Both the position numbers and the translations under genes were made by a program. Below are positions 6,315 to 42,566 of a DNA stretch of 64,000 bases, in pieces (the stretch's first letter is position 1; each line of letters opens with the position of its first letter). Origin of the DNA: an uncultured Candidatus Saccharibacteria bacterium. GTDB taxonomy: Bacteria; Patescibacteriota; Saccharimonadia; CAILAD01; GCA-016700035. The DNA is taken from contig CAZOVH010000001.1 of assembly GCA_964583675.1 (NCBI GenBank), positions 81,754-145,753 of the forward strand. The letters run 5' to 3'. A model generated the notes under the pieces. The model was not told where the DNA came from. It was given only the letters and a program-made list of their open reading frames with translations, and did not search any database.

Positions 6315-6378
6315 GTTTCAATTCTATCAGCCTATCAATAAAAATACCCCAGGAATCGAAACTCCTGAGGCTACGGCA

Positions 6379-6765
6379 CTAGGCCGATGCAAGGTTGCGC
6401 ATGCGTGCCCGAGCCTGATCGATGAGGTCGTAGATGCCAACACCACGTTCAGCGGCCACTTCGCGAATCAACGCACAGTTGTCATCGCTCAGCAGCTCAC
6501 CGTATTGTCTCAGCTGCATGTACACTTCGCTACCGAAGTCATCACGCAGCATCCACTGGTCGGTACTCGACGGATCACCCACAGGTCTGAGCTCAGCCTG
6601 CAGCAGTGTGTCCGGACCGAAGGATGCTCGGTTACCGAAATCATCGATCACCATGAGACACATATCTACAGAGCTGGACGCGTAGTAGAAAATCTCCGGA
6701 CAACAGCCTTCTTCGTGACAGAGCGTCATCAGATGACGGCGGGGTGCGGAATCAGCCTGAGACAT
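6379..6765 (-). CDS. hypothetical acidic protein (129 aa), second gene of a high-GC two-gene operon
   Basis: ATG at 6765 overlaps the upstream TGA (TGACATG) with a GGAG motif just upstream. Diverse composition (MSQADSAPRRHLMTLCHEEGCCPEIFYY...). GC about 60%. Confidence 0.45.
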   Translation of the reverse strand: MSQADSAPRRHLMTLCHEEGCCPEIFYYASSSVDMCLMVIDDFGNRASFGPDTLLQAELRPVGDPSSTDQWMLRDDFGSEVYMQLRQYGELLSDDNCALIREVAAERGVGIYDLIDQARARMRNLASA

Positions 6766-16000: not shown

Positions 16001-16016
16001 CCAAGAGGGTCTCACA

Positions 16017-16053
16017 CCCCGGTAGACAACGACGTCTACCGGGGTTTCGCTTG
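16017..16053 (+). terminator. intrinsic terminator (ccccggtagac-aacgac-gtctaccgggg + TTTCGCTTGTT)
   Basis: 11-bp GC stem plus a T-rich tail, 17 nt after the stop of the 15587..16000 gene. Confidence 0.55.
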
Positions 16054-16061
16054 TTGCAGTT

Positions 16062-16105
16062 TTACTAAAAAGAATAACCTCCAACGGGATAGGACCGTTG
16101 GAGGT
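16062..16105 (-). terminator. intrinsic terminator for the minus-strand operon (cctccaacgg-gatagga-ccgttggagg + U-run on minus)
   Basis: 10-bp stem. On the minus strand it is followed by TTATTCTTTTT, downstream of ORF 16126..16392. Confidence 0.45.
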
Positions 16106-16125
16106 CGGTGTAGATTTGTCCGGTT

Positions 16126-16392
16126 CTACTTCCGGTTGCGCGAGGGCTTGGGCGGATGCTTCCGCCTGTCCTGATGTGCCCAGGGGTGACGCACCTCACC
16201 GGGCTGGTAGTAGCACCAGCTGGAAGACCGCACCGACTTGGAGACTCGTGCCTCCGGGTCGGACAACTCGCTCCCCGTGCAGGACAGCTCATCGGAGCCA
16301 TCACGAGGACCCGCGAGGCCGGCCAGGTCGTAGTAGTCCTGCTCGAACTCGTCAGGCTCGGTGGCGGCAGGTCGGATCATGGTCTTGGGCAT
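16126..16392 (-). CDS. hypothetical acidic protein (88 aa), high-GC island
   Basis: SD AAGGGGGAAAG 4 nt upstream of the ATG. The N-terminal half is acidic (EPDEFEQDYYD). Confidence 0.4.
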   Translation of the reverse strand: MPKTMIRPAATEPDEFEQDYYDLAGLAGPRDGSDELSCTGSELSDPEARVSKSVRSSSWCYYQPGEVRHPWAHQDRRKHPPKPSRNRK

Positions 16393-16414
16393 TACTTTCC
16401 CCCTTGTGGGTCTA

Positions 16415-16903
16415 TCAGACGGCGGTCAGGACGGGCAGGTCGGCGTGCACCGGCACAGAGTCGGCGACAAGCAGCTTGGGCTGCTCAGCCACACGCTCGA
16501 TCATGGTGACGACGTCTCGGTAGACATCCATCTGCTGCCGCGTGAAGGGCACACGGCAGCGCATCAACGGCGCGATGAAGCGCCAGTTGTCGTCGTGCTG
16601 CAGCAACGTTCGCTGCTCGAGCTCGGCGTAGGACATCTGGGTGCGATACGTGTCGATCACATCGACGCGAGTTAGCACCCACTCGAACATGTCGTCCACG
16701 GAGACAAGCTCCGGACGAGTCTGTCCGTAGGCATCGAGCATGGCCACGATGGCACCGATGCCTCGCTGGCGATCGGTGTGATTCCCATCGCGCTGCAGCC
16801 AGCAGGACACATCGTTGCCGCGCGGCTCGACACCCTGATGCCGGACGAGTCGGAAGCGATGATCACGCAGGCCCTCCTCGAGGAAAGTCCAGAGCGTGTT
16901 CAT
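16415..16903 (-). CDS. hypothetical protein (about 163 aa; ORF open up to 17074), high-GC island
   Basis: ATG at 16903 (MNTLWTFLEEGLRDHRF...). Diverse composition. The start is uncertain. Confidence 0.4.
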   Translation of the reverse strand: MNTLWTFLEEGLRDHRFRLVRHQGVEPRGNDVSCWLQRDGNHTDRQRGIGAIVAMLDAYGQTRPELVSVDDMFEWVLTRVDVIDTYRTQMSYAELEQRTLLQHDDNWRFIAPLMRCRVPFTRQQMDVYRDVVTMIERVAEQPKLLVADSVPVHADLPVLTAV

Positions 16904-17198
16904 GTACCGACCGTTGACGTCAGGGTCCGTCAAGATGGCGGGGATGCGGGGGGATGGCGGAAGATTCACAGGGCTCCTGGGTTGATTGAAGGTGCGGGGA
17001 CAAAAAGAGAACGTATCGCGCGACACTGATGTGTTGCGGTATGCGCCCTCCCACAGAGTTCGTGTTTTCCTCACAAACTATCTGGGAGAGGACAAAGTGT
17101 TTGGATTGAGCCCGAGGGGCCGGAAGCAGGCGCAAGAGGCGCCCTTGTGGTCGAACCACAGCTCCGGCCCCTCAGCCACGCCCCAGCGAGTCAGAGGA

Positions 17199-18161
17199 TC
17201 ACTTCCTCTTCTTGGCCTTGGCGGTTCCGGCCACGGGCTTGCCGCGGACGGCAGCCTGCCCGGGGACACCCTGGGGGTTCGGCTTGCCCACCTTGATGCG
17301 GGCGTGCTTCTCCTCCCAGGTCGGACCCTGGGGCTGCGGAGCCGGCTTGGGCCCCTTGGCCTCGGACTCAGCGCGACGCGCCTCGGCCGCCTCTTCGCGA
17401 CGAGCCTGGCTCACCGACTGGGTGGCGTGGAGACTGGGCTCCAGGTTCTCCAGCACCGTCAGCAGACCACGCAAGGTGTCAGCCGGCAGCGTCTCAAGAC
17501 GCCGCAGCTGCTTCTGGCGGTTGGTCGGCATACGGTCGCTGAACCACTGAGTGTAGTCACCGCGGCCATCCTGGGTGAGGACGTGCATGATCTCCTTGCG
17601 GACACCATCCTCCTCGAGACGGATGGCCTCGAAACGGGCCTGTTCGGCGGCGCGGCTCTCGGCACGCTCGGCGTCGAGCTGGTCCATCGCGGCGCGGCCA
17701 GCCGGGGTGGGCTGGAAGTGCGGCGCGTAGGACAGAGCTGTGCGGACGACCTCGGTGTCGTCGTCGGTCAAGCCGACGTAGACCTCGATGTCGAGCTCCT
17801 CGTCGCCGGAGCTGACGCGGCCGTTGTTGATGGCCTGCGCGAAGCTCCGGGCGCGAGCCCTCTCCTTCACCGACAAGCCGTTCAGCCAGTCGGTGAAGAT
17901 CTCGGGCTTGTACTTGGCCACGAGGTCCTCGAACTTGTAGACGTTGTTGAGCGCGCCCTCGAGCTCCTCCCGGCTGCCGTTGAGGGCAGCCTGGAGCTCG
18001 TTCTTGAGGCGCGCCACCATCTTGTCCTGGTGGAACTCGCTGTCGAGGATGGCCTGAGCCAACTTGGCCAGGTGCGGCGTGGTCGCCTCGCTCCACTTGA
18101 ACTGGCGCGGGATGATCGGGGTGAACACGGGGGTCGGGTTGGTGGTCTCAGTCATGGTCAT
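17199..18161 (-). CDS. hypothetical protein (320 aa) with Lys/Ala/Pro-rich basic C-terminal tail, high-GC island
   Basis: ATG at 18161 with SD AGGAGGG upstream (MTMTETTNPTPV...). The C-terminus is ...KPVAGTAKAKKRK. The antisense 398-aa ORF is junk-like. Confidence 0.55.
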   Translation of the reverse strand: MTMTETTNPTPVFTPIIPRQFKWSEATTPHLAKLAQAILDSEFHQDKMVARLKNELQAALNGSREELEGALNNVYKFEDLVAKYKPEIFTDWLNGLSVKERARARSFAQAINNGRVSSGDEELDIEVYVGLTDDDTEVVRTALSYAPHFQPTPAGRAAMDQLDAERAESRAAEQARFEAIRLEEDGVRKEIMHVLTQDGRGDYTQWFSDRMPTNRQKQLRRLETLPADTLRGLLTVLENLEPSLHATQSVSQARREEAAEARRAESEAKGPKPAPQPQGPTWEEKHARIKVGKPNPQGVPGQAAVRGKPVAGTAKAKKRK

Positions 18162-28466: not shown

Positions 28467-29534
28467 TTACCAGAAGATGTTGCGTTTAATGCGCGAGTAA
28501 AGCTTATGAAACAACGGCTCAGCCTTCTGCCAGCGGCCATATACACCGGCTTTAAGTGGCAGCTCCCAACAGCCAACAAACTGCGTAATTTCTTGATTAA
28601 ACCCACTCTTAAACTGATACAAGCCATACATATGATGCTCGGGGTTGAGTTGATCTTTTGGCGGCACGGCGATGAGATCATATTCCTTCGCGCCGCGATC
28701 GCGTGCCCAACGCATGACTTCATATTGCAGCAGATACGGCGCCATTAAATTCCGTTTAGCGCCACTCGAGCCACCCTCTTTGTAATACGCTTTTGCGCCA
28801 AAAATCATCGCGTATTCAGCTGCCAGCACCTCACCTTCGTGCACGGTTACAAAAAACTGACCCATGCCGGCACGTGCAAAACTCTGCCAGTACGACTTAA
28901 ACGCATGTTTTGGTCGCAAATAAAACCCGGCCCTACCCTGCGTATCGCCCATCAGCTTATACATTTCATCAACCATCTCGTCGGTGGCATCACGCTTTTC
29001 GATGGTGACACCTTTTTTTGTAGCCAGCCGAATATTGTAACGCGTCTTCTGCTTAAAGCTCGCCAGCAGTGCGTCATCATCCTTATCAATATCCACGATG
29101 ATTGTGGCTCGAAACTGCAAATCATGCACACTCTTAAGATACCCTGCTTGCTTGGGCTTGAGCTCATCATCATAAATCTCGGGCTCTACCATCAGCATAA
29201 ATGCCTTGGAGTCGTGTTTTTTAATGTATAAAGCCAACTCTTTGGTGAGCGCCTTAAACGCGGCCATCTGGGCCTTATCACTTTTGTAGTGCGCGAAGAT
29301 TCCAGGGCCTTTCGGGATATACCAAATGGTACCAAAACCTGGCGCATTTTTTACTAGCGCCTGAAAGTACACACGCTCTTTGCCACCCTCCCAGGCAAGC
29401 CTTTCCGGACGCCAATCATATTGCGCTTTATACTCACCCCACTCCTGTGTCTGGTAAATATGGCCGCCATCCGGATTCTCTAAAACCAGCTTATTCCAGG
29501 CGTCGCGCTCTTCGGGTCCGGCAGTTCGTATCAT
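28467..29534 (-). CDS. FemAB-family peptidoglycan interpeptide-bridge aminoacyltransferase
   Basis: ATG at 29534 preceded by TATAAT and GGAG. FemAB-like length (about 355 aa) and motifs. Confidence 0.6.
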   Translation of the reverse strand: MIRTAGPEERDAWNKLVLENPDGGHIYQTQEWGEYKAQYDWRPERLAWEGGKERVYFQALVKNAPGFGTIWYIPKGPGIFAHYKSDKAQMAAFKALTKELALYIKKHDSKAFMLMVEPEIYDDELKPKQAGYLKSVHDLQFRATIIVDIDKDDDALLASFKQKTRYNIRLATKKGVTIEKRDATDEMVDEMYKLMGDTQGRAGFYLRPKHAFKSYWQSFARAGMGQFFVTVHEGEVLAAEYAMIFGAKAYYKEGGSSGAKRNLMAPYLLQYEVMRWARDRGAKEYDLIAVPPKDQLNPEHHMYGLYQFKSGFNQEITQFVGCWELPLKAGVYGRWQKAEPLFHKLYSRIKRNIFW

Positions 29535-29634
29535 GCTCCGTATTATACCGGTTTGACCCCTGTAAGATACATTGACTAAATAATTACTAAGTTGTATTAT
29601 ATGCGAACCTGCACCTATCCAAGAAAGGTTCCTG

Positions 29635-30486
29635 ATGACAACTGTCAGCATGGAAAAGTTCCTCACCAGCTACCCCACACGACAAGAAGCGCTCGACACG
29701 CTCGGTCTCGGTGACCTATTCGAATTCATCGATGCCGTCGACGTACATGAGGACTCATCGGCCGCCGACAAACTGGCCGAGACAGCTACGCTCGCAAAGA
29801 GTGAGCATGGCATCCGAGACATGTGGGCCTGGCTACAGCGAAACTTCGGCCTGTCACACAGCCGTGTCAACCAGATCATCACACGCCAGCCGGTCGTACA
29901 TCTGCAACATCACCTACGGCATGCCACGTCGCCGAGTCTGCGTCCGGGCTACCGCTTCAACCAGCTGTGCTACGCCTGGAGCATCTTGCACGATGTGCCC
30001 GAAGGATTCTTGTACGGCGACAACTTCCAGATGATGCGCGAGCGCTTCGACTCGACACTCCAGCAATACCTGGAAGATGCCGTGACCCCCGAGCTGTTCT
30101 GGCTGTGCTTCCACGCCAGCCAGGATGAGCTTCTGCATGACATGCTGCGCAAGCAAGCGGCTGTTCATGCCAGGCGTGTTCTCGAAGAATACACGGAGTC
30201 ACTAGAGGAACTCTGGCTTCTTGATCCGCTACAGCACGAACCCACCTCCATCTGGGACCACACCCTTGAGGACGCAGACACACCGGCAGAAGACGTCGAC
30301 GACAGCCCTGATGCAAGCAACGATCTGGAAGCACTCGACGTCGCACTGACTGAAGGTCCGTTCGATGATGAAGATGACTCCACCAATGGTGGGCCGATCA
30401 GTGCCGAAGCCATGGACGATGAAGACGCCTTCGAAGTGTCGATTCGCAAGCATTACGGCAAGCAAGCCGCTGACCTGCTCTTTTAG
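29635..30486 (+). CDS. hypothetical acidic protein (283 aa), high-GC
   Basis: Asp/Glu-rich C-terminus and a conserved-style terminator downstream. Confidence 0.45.
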   Translation: MTTVSMEKFLTSYPTRQEALDTLGLGDLFEFIDAVDVHEDSSAADKLAETATLAKSEHGIRDMWAWLQRNFGLSHSRVNQIITRQPVVHLQHHLRHATSPSLRPGYRFNQLCYAWSILHDVPEGFLYGDNFQMMRERFDSTLQQYLEDAVTPELFWLCFHASQDELLHDMLRKQAAVHARRVLEEYTESLEELWLLDPLQHEPTSIWDHTLEDADTPAEDVDDSPDASNDLEALDVALTEGPFDDEDDSTNGGPISAEAMDDEDAFEVSIRKHYGKQAADLLF

Positions 30487-31110: not shown

Positions 31111-32073
31111 TTACTCCAGCCCGCGCAACCTACGATACACCTGGTAAGCTCGATACTTCGTCTTTTTAATAGGAATATCCCACGTGCCGAAAGTGGTCAC
31201 GCGCTCACCGCCAAAACCTTTTTTAAACGCGGTAATCCCTGCCCATTTATGGTCAGCAGAATCATCTGGCGCAGCGCCCCAAAAATCAAACTTCGTCAGT
31301 CCCGCAACTTTAGCATCTGCAATCATCTTCCAGACTGCCGAGACAGCTACTTTGTATTCACGATTCAAAGCCTGATCATTACCAGTATGCGCATACGAGC
31401 GCGTATCGCCCCAGTCGTACACCAGACTGACGCTGGCTACTTTTCCGGCCACGCTAGAGACATAAAAGCTCGCAACACCTTTACCGATGAGTGTTTCCGC
31501 GAGATGGCGGTAATAACTATCCGGATAATTCGTGATATGGGCGTGTGCAGCAGTGTCAGCCATAAGCCGCAAAAAATCATTCATAGGTGACATATCTTGC
31601 ACCTGTCGAATAACGATACCGCGTTTTTCGGTAGTGTTTACGCGGTTGCGATGGCCAGATTGCAAGCCGCGTCGCAAATCTTCTTCCGGCTGGGAAATAT
31701 CCAAAACAAATGTATGCTGAGGATCTACCTCGGTGATCTTGCGCGCACCCGCAGCTCGCAAATCGGCTTCCGTAACAGCGCCAATCGGCTCCAGGCGAAC
31801 AAAATCTACCTCCTGCTCCTCGGCCGAAAAAACAATCGAGCGCAGTGCCTCTGCGGCGTTCTTCTGCACCACTGGGCCATAGGGCAAAATAAGATAACGC
31901 AAGCCCTTTGAGCTACGCATAAAGCCTTGCCAAGCCCACCCACCTGCTGAACTAGCCCGCACGGCTTCGCGGCCAACAATCTCCTGAAATTCTGCCCAGG
32001 CGGTACTTTGTAAAATGCCACCGCCTAACTGCGCAATCTGCGTATCCCAAACGGTTGGCTCAAAGTTAGTCAT
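31111..32073 (-). CDS. FemAB-family protein (second paralog)
   Basis: ATG at 32073 (MTNFEPTVWD...). A TTG at 32103 is an alternative start. FemAB-like. Confidence 0.55.
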   Translation of the reverse strand: MTNFEPTVWDTQIAQLGGGILQSTAWAEFQEIVGREAVRASSAGGWAWQGFMRSSKGLRYLILPYGPVVQKNAAEALRSIVFSAEEQEVDFVRLEPIGAVTEADLRAAGARKITEVDPQHTFVLDISQPEEDLRRGLQSGHRNRVNTTEKRGIVIRQVQDMSPMNDFLRLMADTAAHAHITNYPDSYYRHLAETLIGKGVASFYVSSVAGKVASVSLVYDWGDTRSYAHTGNDQALNREYKVAVSAVWKMIADAKVAGLTKFDFWGAAPDDSADHKWAGITAFKKGFGGERVTTFGTWDIPIKKTKYRAYQVYRRLRGLE

Positions 32074-32173
32074 AGTTTTATTGTATACCAAAGTATAGTC
32101 CAACTTATATTGCTAAATTAGTAAAAAAATTGTATGATATAGCAATTCTTGCACCTCAAAGAAAGGCTTCACC

Positions 32174-41041: not shown

Positions 41042-41105
41042 CCCTTTACGAATCAGGGGAAATTAGGTAAAATAACCTCTGCTTTTTGTACCTTACATTT
41101 TGTGC

Positions 41106-41182
41106 GCGCTCGTAGCTCAGTTGGATAGAGCGTTGGTTTGCGGTACCAGAGGTCGCAGGTTCGAATCCTGCCGAGCGCACCA
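41106..41182 (+). tRNA. tRNA-Arg (anticodon GCG by eye)
   Basis: GCGCTCGTAGCTCAGTTGGATAGAGCG... with A20 in the D-loop, anticodon loop TTGCGGT, GGTTCGAATCC and CCA encoded. Confidence 0.7.
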
Positions 41183-41724
41183 TAATTATTTTCTTGTGAA
41201 TTCGGGAGGGGAATAATCCTTTCTCGATCACACCAGAAAAGTCTGGTAAGTTCATGAGATCCCGCGTGTCCCTAAGAGGAAGTGAGCCTCACCGCCTCAC
41301 GAAAGCGTAAGTCGGTCATATGGGTTTGTTAACGACCAAGCCCTATGGCGCCAAGGAACTTCGCTGCACAGAGGATCGGCAGCTGTATCTGCCCTGCTGG
41401 GCTCGTAGAAGCTCGCGGTGGATGCAGCCGTTTCGCACCTTAATACATGCAACAATTCTGGGATAAGCAACGCCCAGACGTTCGACGACAAGGCCACCCC
41501 AGCTTCGGCTTAGGTGTGCTCACAGGAATCGGGGATCCCCTGCATGTCGAACGAATAACCCCGGCATTCCTGTGATGCACACCACTGACACAGCGGATTA
41601 GATACCCGCGCCGTCACACAAGGTGGTAAGGAGGAGCATCGTCCTCCGTTGGTAACCCAGCAACCGCGGAAGTACCAACGAAAACGTAGAGATTGGGGTG
41701 CCAGGACACCCCTCTCTCGACCAA
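41183..41724 (+). other. structured noncoding spacer with colinear 16S rRNA-like conserved motifs (possible mini-16S relic/pseudogene)
   Basis: Contains GCTCGCGG...CCTTAATACATGCAA, CTGCATGTCGAACG, an exact GGATTAGATACCC, CGCCGTCACAC and GGTAACC..AACCGCGG, in 16S order, within 540 nt and with many hairpins. Confidence 0.3.
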
Positions 41725-41797
41725 GCACAGATAGCTCAGTTGGTAGAGCATTCGCCTGAAAAGCGGAAGGTCGAAGGTTCGAACCCTTCTCTGTGCT
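41725..41797 (+). tRNA. tRNA-Phe (anticodon GAA)
   Basis: GCACAGATAGCTCAGTTGGTAGAGC... with anticodon loop CTGAAAA and GGTTCGAACC. CCA is not encoded. Confidence 0.8.
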
Positions 41798-41801
41798 CGA
41801 T

Positions 41802-41874
41802 ACCCCCGTAGCTCAGCGGAAGAGCGTCCGATTCTTAACTCGGAAGGTCGCGAGATCAATACTCGCCGGGGGTG
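41802..41874 (+). tRNA. tRNA-Lys (anticodon CTT)
   Basis: Acceptor ACCCCCG/CGGGGGT and anticodon loop TTCTTAA. Unusual T-loop ATCAATA (A54). CCA is not encoded. Confidence 0.65.
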
Positions 41875-41900
41875 CAGGGCTAATGTGAGCCTTAATCACA

Positions 41901-41971
41901 CGGGCTATAGCTCAGAGGTAGAGCTGCCAGCTGGGTGCTGGTGGTCACAGGTTCAAGTCCTGTTAGCCCGA
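41901..41971 (+). tRNA. tRNA-Pro (anticodon GGG by eye; T at position 37 is unusual)
   Basis: Acceptor CGGGCTA/TAGCCCG, anticodon loop CTGGGTG and GGTTCAAGTCC. Confidence 0.55.
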
Positions 41972-42056
41972 CAACTGACTTCCACTCTCGTTGTTTTTGT
42001 AGCAGCGCCGCCAACGCTGCTCTCTGCTTGCAGAAAGCAAGGAAACGGGAAGTCAG

Positions 42057-42134
42057 GCGGGGGTAGCTCATGGGAGAGCAACTTGGGTGAAAGCCCGAGG
42101 AGGTACGTGGGTTCAAATCCCACCCCCTGCACCA
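42057..42134 (+). tRNA. tRNA-like gene with atypical 18-nt anticodon arm (identity unresolved; possibly Phe-like GAA with extra nucleotide, or pseudo-tRNA)
   Basis: Acceptor GCGGGGG/CCCCTGC, D-arm GCTCATGGGAGAGC, T-arm GTGGGTTCAAATCCCAC and ACCA encoded. The anticodon region CTTGGGTGAAAGCCCGAG is one nucleotide too long. Confidence 0.4.
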
Positions 42135-42566
42135 CCACACCTTCAGTCGGCGAGGTAAGTGGACCACTGCCTCTAGAGAGGCCTCCATTGGACCCCTCTC
42201 GAACCCAGTGGTGTGTGCCTTAAAATCAGACCGAGTCTCGTGAAAACGGGGCAAAGACAGTTTGTGGCACACTCGGGTAGCACGTCTTTCACACAGACGA
42301 AGGCCCCGAAAGACAAGCCGACGCTCGGTAAAATCCGGACACCACGAGACGCAAAACGTAAATGGAAGACACATAGCACAAGTCCGGTCCCTCATGCCAG
42401 CTTCGGCAAAAATGAGGCAACGCAAGTTGATGCATGCGACGGCATGCGCTGCACCATACCGAAGCGTGGCGATAGAAGCTCGCCTCGCTGAAAGCCTTCG
42501 GGCCGTAAAAGTTGGTGTGGCACCCGCCGGTCGGGGAGAGGTCCCCGGCCGGCACTTCTTTTTTAC
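42135..42566 (+). ncRNA. structured RNA / leader (about 430 nt) ending in a strong intrinsic terminator; T-box-like UGGCACC element immediately 5' of the terminator
   Basis: No credible ORF. Multiple long-range complementary segments. GGTGTGGCACCCGCCGG overlaps the 5' strand of the terminator. Confidence 0.25.
42526..42566 (+). terminator. intrinsic terminator (gccggtcgggga-gaggt-tccccggccggc + CTTCTTTTTT)
   Basis: 12-bp GC-rich stem followed by a T-run, 67 nt upstream of the ATG at 42633. Confidence 0.7.

Follow-up and report, generated by a model that had tools for sequence, protein, structure and literature searches.

An undescribed structured RNA of a Saccharibacteria tRNA operon that may imitate part of the 30S decoding region

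In a 64-kb stretch of DNA that was analysed as a whole (the window), a tRNA-Arg and a tRNA-Phe gene enclose a spacer of about 540 nucleotides (nt), here called RNA-1 (positions 41183-41724, plus strand). RNA-1 is a gene for a modular, structured non-coding RNA that is restricted to a small clade of Saccharibacteria. It represents a new RNA family, previously undescribed and without a match in Rfam, and it is a real RNA gene, not a decayed 16S rRNA gene. Its 3' domain carries hairpins resembling those of the 790 and 530 loops of 16S rRNA, and this likeness suggests that RNA-1 may imitate part of the ribosome.

The tRNA operon around RNA-1

Among the proteins encoded in the window are valyl-tRNA synthetase (ValRS), GroEL, phosphoglucomutase, an M3 peptidase, FemAB-family enzymes, a solute-binding protein and a VirB4/TraG-type ATPase of type IV secretion systems. 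The nearest genomic matches of the ValRS are metagenome-assembled genomes (MAGs) of Patescibacteria or Saccharibacteria, the top one (62% identity) being a MAG from Lake Baikal. The window is part of a cellular Patescibacteria genome rather than of a phage, and the neighbours of RNA-1 are housekeeping genes. A conserved gene for a 179-aa membrane protein is located just upstream of tRNA-Arg, and a DUF975/UPF0259 membrane protein gene follows downstream of the terminator. Between the two lie the following elements:

41045-41073, plus strand: promoter-like element (TTTACG, 17 nt, TAAAAT) from a consensus scan, upstream of tRNA-Arg, with a putative promoter function
41106-41182, plus strand: tRNA-Arg(GCG), canonical, with encoded CCA (ARAGORN and Rfam, 70 bits)
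41183-41724, plus strand: RNA-1, structured non-coding RNA of ~520-560 nt (fold z-score, homologs, covariation)
41725-41798, plus strand: tRNA-Phe(GAA), canonical (ARAGORN, Rfam)
41802-41875, plus strand: tRNA-shaped gene with an 8-nt anticodon loop, UUCUUAAC (Rfam tRNA model, 54.6 bits)
41901-41972, plus strand: Pro(GGG)-like tRNA-shaped gene with C1:G72 (ARAGORN, Rfam)
42057-42134, plus strand: tRNA(Ala)-like gene with G3:U70, A73 and encoded CCA, its anticodon arm being a variable plain hairpin
42135-42563, plus strand: RNA-2, a second structured RNA, with an intrinsic terminator at its end (fold z-score, covariation, terminator)
42526-42563, plus strand: strong intrinsic terminator (stem 42526-42553 and a T run)

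RNA-1 exactly fills the gap between tRNA-Arg(gcg) (41106-41182) and tRNA-Phe(gaa) (41725-41798), and the unit continues with the 8-nt-loop tRNA-like gene, the Pro-type tRNA, the Ala-type tRNA-like gene and RNA-2. tRNA-Arg(GCG) occupies the same position in all relatives, which have a tRNA-like gene in the place of tRNA-Phe(GAA). The promoter-like element is the probable start of the transcription unit and the terminator its probable end; in the promoter region, the 50 nt past the upstream gene are about 90% identical in five related loci (L087, L088, L089, L091 and L092).

Conservation and architecture of RNA-1

The sequence-only reading of this DNA had described the spacer as structured, which is borne out by its fold (z = -5.7 against shuffled sequences on the plus strand, -4.3 on the minus strand). 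Protein coding was ruled out by the shortness of the open reading frames (ORFs) on the plus strand, which span only 42-48 aa, together with the non-triplet, frame-breaking insertions and deletions by which the homologs differ.

Homologs were searched for on contigs encoding relatives of the 179-aa membrane protein upstream of tRNA-Arg, and additionally by a pattern scan of metagenomes. They were found in the same position, directly 3' of tRNA-Arg(gcg), in L087, L088, L090, L091, L093, L095-97, L125 and L178, which amount to about six lineages; L095, L096 and L097 are NCBI MAGs and L125 stems from the pattern scan. The homologs in L090, L087 and L088 show ~72-75% identity to the spacer, that in L091 is a reduced version of 344 nt, and that in L093 is partial, being located at a contig end.

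For seven of the sequences RNAalifold predicted 102 pairs, 36 of which underwent compensatory double changes; a count across the alignment found 92.5% of the cells paired. Column shuffles yielded only 20.5 +/- 2.5 pairs with double changes (none of 500 shuffles reached 36), and slid controls yielded 1-9. The secondary structure of RNA-1 is maintained through compensatory substitutions.

A covariance model of the conserved core (R1) matched members of the family only and gave no match in about 40 other, more distant Saccharibacteria loci. Absence or lack of structure in relatives would, according to the sequence-only reading, have spoken against its idea; the region is present and structured in the closest clade and is missing from those more distant loci. 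No homolog of the spacer was found by blastn or covariance model in 80 genome loci anchored on ValRS, and searches of phage genomes (blastn) and viral contigs (two pattern scans) returned only tRNA matches or nothing. In the metagenome scan with the core pattern, 72 of the 73 matches were to an unrelated repeat from termite guts, L125 being the sole true member. Some 60 copies of this highly similar repeat (…TTTTTCGCACCTGTCCAGACCGGCTCTGGGGCCCACCCAGCC…) on termite-gut metagenome contigs (L098-L170) matched the core pattern; it is probably a dispersed repeat.

Rfam searches of the window, of sub-windows and of the homologs, at gathering as well as permissive thresholds, recovered only tRNAs; within RNA-1 there was no match to small-subunit (SSU) or large-subunit (LSU) rRNA, RNase P, tmRNA, ROOL, GOLLD or introns. 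Likewise, the models for tmRNA, RNase P RNA, SRP RNA, 6S RNA and group I-II introns matched nowhere within 41183-41724 or the homologs.

From 5' to 3', RNA-1 comprises a hairpin domain, the conserved core and a 3' domain that is exchangeable and made up of five helices. Its parts are:

41191-41238, plus strand: long hairpin of the 5' domain (consensus helix 1; 14 pairs, 4 compensatory, 98% paired)
41432-41553, plus strand: conserved core with the invariant UUCGCACCU (family alignments)
41457-41478, plus strand: core hairpin UCUGGG/CCCAGA
41479-41486 with 41546-41553, plus strand: core helix of CGUUCGAC with GUCGAACG (helix 10; compensatory changes in 3 of 8 pairs)
41593-41609, plus strand: hairpin GCGG-AUUAGAUAC-CCGC resembling helix 24 (h24) of 16S rRNA, with an exact 13-mer to 16S 785-797 (the 790 loop), predicted by minimum free energy
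41606-41624, plus strand: CCGC(G)CCGUCACAC-AAGGU, like 16S 1399-1411 with one inserted base, then like ~1501-1505
41630-41647, plus strand: hairpin GGAGGA-GCAUCG-UCCUCC resembling a Shine-Dalgarno (SD) and anti-SD pair, preceded by UAA (fold; helix 5)
41648-41679, plus strand: hairpin resembling helix 18 (h18) of 16S rRNA, with a 7-bp stem GUUGGUA/UACCAAC and an 18-nt loop ACCCAGCAACCGCGGAAG (compare the 16S 530 loop GCCAGCAGCCGCGGUAAU)
41688-41717, plus strand: 3' terminal hairpin, followed by GACCAA and the next tRNA (helix 7; 11 pairs, 3 compensatory)

The core helix 41479-41486/41546-41553 crosses the hairpin GGUGUGC/GCACACC, and the predicted core is therefore likely to be pseudoknotted. 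The segment 41606-41624 supplies the 3' strand of a helix with 41582-41589, which encloses the h24-like hairpin (helices 2-3). Further downstream, a perfect Shine-Dalgarno-like UAAGGAGG pairs with the anti-SD-like strand UCCUCC, and the GAGG...CCUC of this hairpin is retained in six of seven members.

Two stretches of RNA-1 are complementary to 16S rRNA itself: the invariant core motif UUUCGCACCU (41431-41440) to E. coli 16S 759-768, and the UAAGGAGG of the 3' domain (41627-41634) to the 16S 3' end, with no plausible conserved ORF following the latter. Pairing of the h24-like or h18-like loop with other loops or with the anticodon loops of the tRNA-like genes, looked for by eye, was conserved in places without showing covariation, for want of which the idea was dropped. 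A paralogous relationship of RNA-1 and RNA-2 was also rejected, as the two share only two 11-mers.

The identities of the domains form a mosaic. The 5' domain of the window is 76% identical to that of L178 and 43% to that of L095, while the 3' domain is 80% identical to that of L095 and 64% to that of L178. A 49-nt block that holds the h24-like hairpin is fully identical between the window and L095. This block may indicate constraint on the module or recombination.

Resemblance to 16S rRNA, and the companion RNAs of the unit

In the 30S subunit, the 790 loop, the 530 loop, the 1400 strand and the SD:anti-SD elements line the cleft in which mRNA and tRNA are decoded, and the hairpins of h24 and h18 face each other across it. 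RNA-1 was compared directly with E. coli 16S rRNA. Its h24-like hairpin shares with h24 of 16S the 9-nt loop and the two G-C pairs that close it, and in the outer pairs the bases are changed with pairing kept. Across the family the stem is 96% paired and its sequence invariant; the hairpin is identical in L095, L096, L097 and L125 and agrees at 12 of 13 positions in L090.

The h18-like hairpin matches 16S 518-530 at 12 of 13 positions in the window and at all 13 in L125, and over 16S 518-540 the agreement is 19-20 of 23 positions in L095 and L125 (20/23 in L125). In these two loci the stem reads CUCAGU/ACUGAG, as against CUCCGU/ACGGAG in 16S, which includes one compensatory pair, and across the family four of the seven stem pairs show compensatory changes. 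The window's lineage and three others carry hairpins that replicate the apical parts of h24 and h18 in loop sequence and hairpin geometry.

All 16S-like strings listed by the sequence-only reading are present on the plus strand, namely GGATTAGATACCC at 41595-41607, CGCCGTCACAC within 41606-41624, CCTTAATACATGCAA within 41432-41453, CTGCATGTCGAACG around 41541-41553 and GGTAACC...AACCGCGG within 41648-41679, and they fared differently on inspection. The 790 motif held up as an exact 13-mer in the same hairpin geometry. The 1400 motif did not, as it needs an inserted base and is weak alone: the control DNA described below holds five other places that agree with 1399-1411 at 12 of 13 positions. 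The two 5' motifs (CCTTAATACATGCAA and CTGCATGTCGAACG) score at background, matches of 9-10 nt being found against 23S rRNA too, and one of the two is deleted in L095. GGTAACC...AACCGCGG had been taken for the 3' terminal helix region; it is better read as a copy of the 530 loop because it resembles the loop and stem of h18 and is exact to 518-530 in L125. With this element placed after the 1400-like string, the supposed 16S order of the strings is lost, and the modules of RNA-1 run 790-like, 1400-like, 530-like, which differs from 16S.

The estimate that the 13-mer alone would be expected at about 0.2% by chance came from the wrong test. With the whole of E. coli 16S, on either strand, the window has three 13-mers in common against an expectation of 2.9, so that a single 13-mer is unremarkable. 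The combination of matches fares better. The best three 13-nt windows of the spacer against 16S score 13, 12 and 12, a sum reached by 0.2% of dinucleotide shuffles, and the shuffle tests on the window overall gave P of about 0.002-0.005. L125 holds two exact 13-mers (785-797 and 518-530) and the 20/23 match to 518-540, values that none of 1000 shuffles reached. Moreover, k-mers in common with the 16S sense strand are enriched 2-4 fold in the window, L090, L095 and L125 (P 0.002-0.03). In 4.0 Mb of fetched control DNA, searched on both strands, the 790-loop probe (at least 12/13) and the h18 probe (at least 18/23) matched solely a genuine 16S and the members of RNA-1.

RNA-2 served as a negative control and showed no enrichment against 16S, 23S or 5S rRNA, the k-mers of 23S and 5S being enriched in none of six lineages. 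This second RNA (fold z = -5.3) is conserved in six lineages, including those without RNA-1, and 19 of its 40 pairs are compensatory; it matches no Rfam family and resembles neither 16S nor 23S nor 5S.

Several of the tRNA-like genes of the unit are unusual. The Ala-like gene has homologs in L087 (7526-7597), L090 (1803-1874), L091 (3163-3234), L094 (6007-6084) and L095/L096 (6438-6512). Every lineage keeps the alanine identity set (G3:U70 and mostly A73) and an Ala-type D arm, and the "anticodon arm" is a plain hairpin with a loop of 4-9 nt that is different in each lineage. Together with weak Rfam matches to the tRNA-like domain of tmRNA, its sequence makes the gene look like a non-decoding alanine acceptor. 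Two genes of the FemAB family, enzymes of the cell wall that depend on aminoacyl-tRNA, are located elsewhere in the window (28467-29666 and 31111-32103). Homologs of the Pro-like gene in relatives have non-standard anticodon loops of 5-7 nt, and the tRNA-like gene at 41802-41875 has an atypical T loop, AUCAAUA, without the usual UUC. Between L095 and L096, whose RNA-1 sequences are 99.8% identical, the two copies of the Pro-type tRNA-like gene (6315-6388) disagree at many sites, paired stem changes among them, and the next tRNA-like gene differs in its loop (AAC vs AAA), which looks like a cassette-like replacement or local hypervariation. Apart from the unit, positions 16001-18000 of the window form a 2-kb stretch with 64% G+C, the rest having 43-54%.

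Possible role of RNA-1 and competing explanations

The explanation that we tentatively prefer overall, at somewhat short of an even chance, is that RNA-1 is a new structured RNA of a tRNA operon and a candidate trans-acting mimic or decoy of the 30S decoding region. Judging from the anatomy of the locus, the probable promoter ahead of tRNA-Arg(GCG) would drive a single transcript that includes RNA-1 and extends to the terminator. tRNAs abut both of its ends, and tRNA-processing enzymes would therefore release it: its 5' end would come from 3' processing of tRNA-Arg, and its 3' end from RNase P cutting at the tRNA that follows. In the window's lineage, the predicted 3' domain would then display, side by side, the apical hairpin of h24, a strand like 1399-1411, the SD:anti-SD hairpin and the 530-loop hairpin of h18. 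Acting in trans, RNA-1 might bind and titrate whatever recognises these 16S loops, the two at issue being AUUAGAUAC and CCAGCARCCGCGG; candidate ligands would be an initiation, hibernation or assembly factor, a ribosomal protein, an rRNA-modifying enzyme, a toxin or an antibiotic. As a variant, RNA-1 could be an assembly chaperone that base-pairs with 16S rRNA through UUUCGCACCU (759-768) and UAAGGAGG (16S 3' end). We infer molecular mimicry as the most economical functional reading, and it is plausible that RNA-1 serves as a mimic or decoy of the decoding region.

Stable RNAs that act in trans by imitating the natural nucleic-acid target of a factor are known: 6S RNA mimics open promoter DNA, and CsrB/RsmZ mimic the GGA sites of mRNAs. 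RNA-1 would share with them the logic of titrating a factor, and differs in that it has no kinship to them in sequence or structure and in that the target it would imitate is the 30S decoding region. In size and in its adjacency to tRNA genes (tRNA-Arg and tRNA-Phe, or tRNA-like genes in relatives), RNA-1 recalls ROOL (RF03087) and GOLLD (RF01998), intricate non-coding RNAs of 500-800 nt that typically lie beside tRNA genes and have a patchy, lineage-restricted distribution. It does not match their models, however (E<=10 for the window, E<=1 for the homologs), and it is chromosomal in Saccharibacteria, whereas ROOL and GOLLD are frequently found in phages or prophages. We know of no rRNA-like modules in either family. 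With genuine or reduced SSU rRNAs, including the miniaturised or fragmented ones of mitochondria, RNA-1 has the 790- and 530-loop hairpins and the 1400-like strand in common; in contrast to them it fails the SSU models, has its elements out of order, bears an unrelated 5' two thirds and lacks the central pseudoknot, h27/h28, h44 and h45. Nor does 23S or 5S rRNA follow downstream of RNA-1, the Rfam search having found no rRNA gene anywhere in the 64-kb window.

Our search of the literature did not find an rRNA-mimic RNA or a Saccharibacteria non-coding RNA of this kind and turned up only ribosomal-protein leaders. The known cases of rRNA mimicry, the leaders of S15, L20, S6:S18 and Firmicutes S4, are short cis-acting elements in the 5' untranslated regions of ribosomal-protein genes that imitate a few nucleotides (Eckert and Weinberg 2020, PMC7247131). 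In both cases a non-ribosomal RNA reproduces the sequence or structure of an rRNA site, with the result in the leaders that a factor binding the rRNA also binds the mimic, and RNA-1 shows nucleotides and structure of this kind in its h24- and h18-like hairpins, in only part of the family. Unlike the leaders, RNA-1 (~540 nt) stands alone in a tRNA operon, where tRNAs, RNA-2, the terminator and the DUF975/UPF0259 gene follow it but no ribosomal-protein gene does, and it copies whole apical hairpins with loops of 9 nt and 18 nt. The novelty of RNA-1 is that two known themes, the large tRNA-associated structured RNA and rRNA mimicry, are newly combined.

A number of observations weigh against a mimic. 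The 16S-like loops are no defining feature of the family: in L087 the 790-like loop is an 11/13 match, AUUGGGUAC, and a 530-like loop is missing, the h24-like hairpin is deleted in L088, both loops are degraded in L178, and the 3' domain of L091 is a different one. In L094 almost the whole RNA has been lost, the 5' hairpin being all that is left. For about 400 of the 540 nt, the similarity to 16S is not above background. The h24-like stem has no covariation support, because it never varies, and in view of the mosaic identities the identical 49-nt block may reflect recombination between lineages rather than purifying selection. The structure as a whole is supported by few sequences (7-8, from about six lineages), and the decoy role is putative. 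Finally, the SSU, LSU and 5S covariance models found no match at the gathering threshold or at E<=10 in the whole window, in 6 kb, in a search space of 165 nt or in six homolog loci. For the SSU model this was the check proposed by the sequence-only reading, and the model gave no alignment; direct comparison did find more than the single 13-mer.

The main rival, less likely but serious, takes RNA-1 for a real structured RNA whose function has nothing to do with mimicry, be it an ornate self-assembling RNA of the ROOL/GOLLD type or a scaffold or processing element of the RNA operon, and the 16S loops for coincidental, convergent or captured pieces, for example loops used for tertiary or kissing contacts. 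It would account for the core and the overall fold persisting where the loops vary or vanish (L087, L088, L178, L091), for the lack of 16S similarity in most of RNA-1, for the silence of the SSU models and for the position in a tRNA cluster, as in ROOL and GOLLD. The apparent significance of the 16S matches is also inflated, since 64 kb were scanned for anything striking. CCGCGG is palindromic, but the palindrome is lost in L090, and no ROOL or GOLLD match appeared at E<=10. Coincidence is harder to reconcile with two independent 16S loop probes that match solely RNA-1 and true 16S in 4 Mb, with values in L125 that 0 of 1000 shuffles reach, and with both matches being located in hairpin loops of the 16S size class, on an h18 stem in L095/L125 that is nearly the same as in 16S and differs by one compensatory pair.

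It is rather improbable that the block from tRNA-Arg to the terminator is the cargo or remnant of a small integrative or recombining element at the 3' side of tRNA-Arg, with RNA-1 serving the element and the 16S pieces picked up from rDNA. Such an element would explain why the content between tRNA-Arg(gcg) and tRNA-Ser(cga), which are adjacent or close in most Saccharibacteria, differs per lineage, as well as the polymorphism of RNA-1 in presence, absence and size, its mosaic domains and the cassette-like swap of one tRNA-like gene between L095 and L096. In L093, ~350 extra bases (2561-2914) lie between tRNA-Arg and the start of RNA-1 and contain a 27-nt duplicate of the tRNA-Arg 3' end (2688-2714), as is seen after integration into a tRNA gene. 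In the window, however, the tRNA-Arg 3' end is not repeated, and the idea of an attachment site was rejected; the block contains no integrase, transposase or phage gene and has no match in phage genomes or viral contigs, and with its flanking genes syntenic it behaves as a chromosomal locus.

The relic proposed by the sequence-only reading, a further rRNA operon of which deletions would have left a 16S pseudogene and some tRNAs, is very improbable and largely refuted. The 16S-like strings do follow each other as 790, 1400 and about 1500, and the Ala-type tRNA-like gene between RNA-1 and a second long RNA loosely recalls the layout 16S-tRNA-23S. But no SSU, LSU or 5S model matches, the 530-like hairpin breaks the 16S order, and the 5' 400 nt have no relation to 16S. 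The idea of a "mini rrn operon" was rejected as RNA-2 has no 23S or 5S similarity, and compensatory substitutions keep the fold, which neutral decay would not do. The same reading had also considered a functional RNA with rRNA-like elements, and this fits RNA-1 in part: it is conserved, structured and, in some lineages, equipped with h24- and h18-like hairpins; most of the RNA is, however, unlike 16S.

The preferred reading, the mimic or decoy of the decoding region, has a boldest form that is unlikely enough to be offered as speculation: no natural "decoding-site decoy" acting in trans would have preceded RNA-1, which as a stable RNA would sequester a factor aimed at the 30S decoding cleft. 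That factor may here be an antibiotic from the actinobacterial hosts of Saccharibacteria, besides the initiation, hibernation or assembly factor or the toxin already mentioned.

Should mimicry not be functional, two structured RNAs new to science and several tRNA-like genes that do not decode, one of them an alanine-type acceptor lacking an anticodon, would still be gained from this locus for a phylum for which we know of almost no non-coding RNA biology. If it is functional, rRNA mimicry would no longer be confined to short cis-regulatory leaders and single protein-binding sites but would take in a free-standing RNA and the functional centre of the small subunit. Saccharibacteria are ultra-small episymbiotic bacteria with an unusual translation apparatus, and the 3' domain of RNA-1 would then provide a handle on the factors that read the decoding site in such cells.

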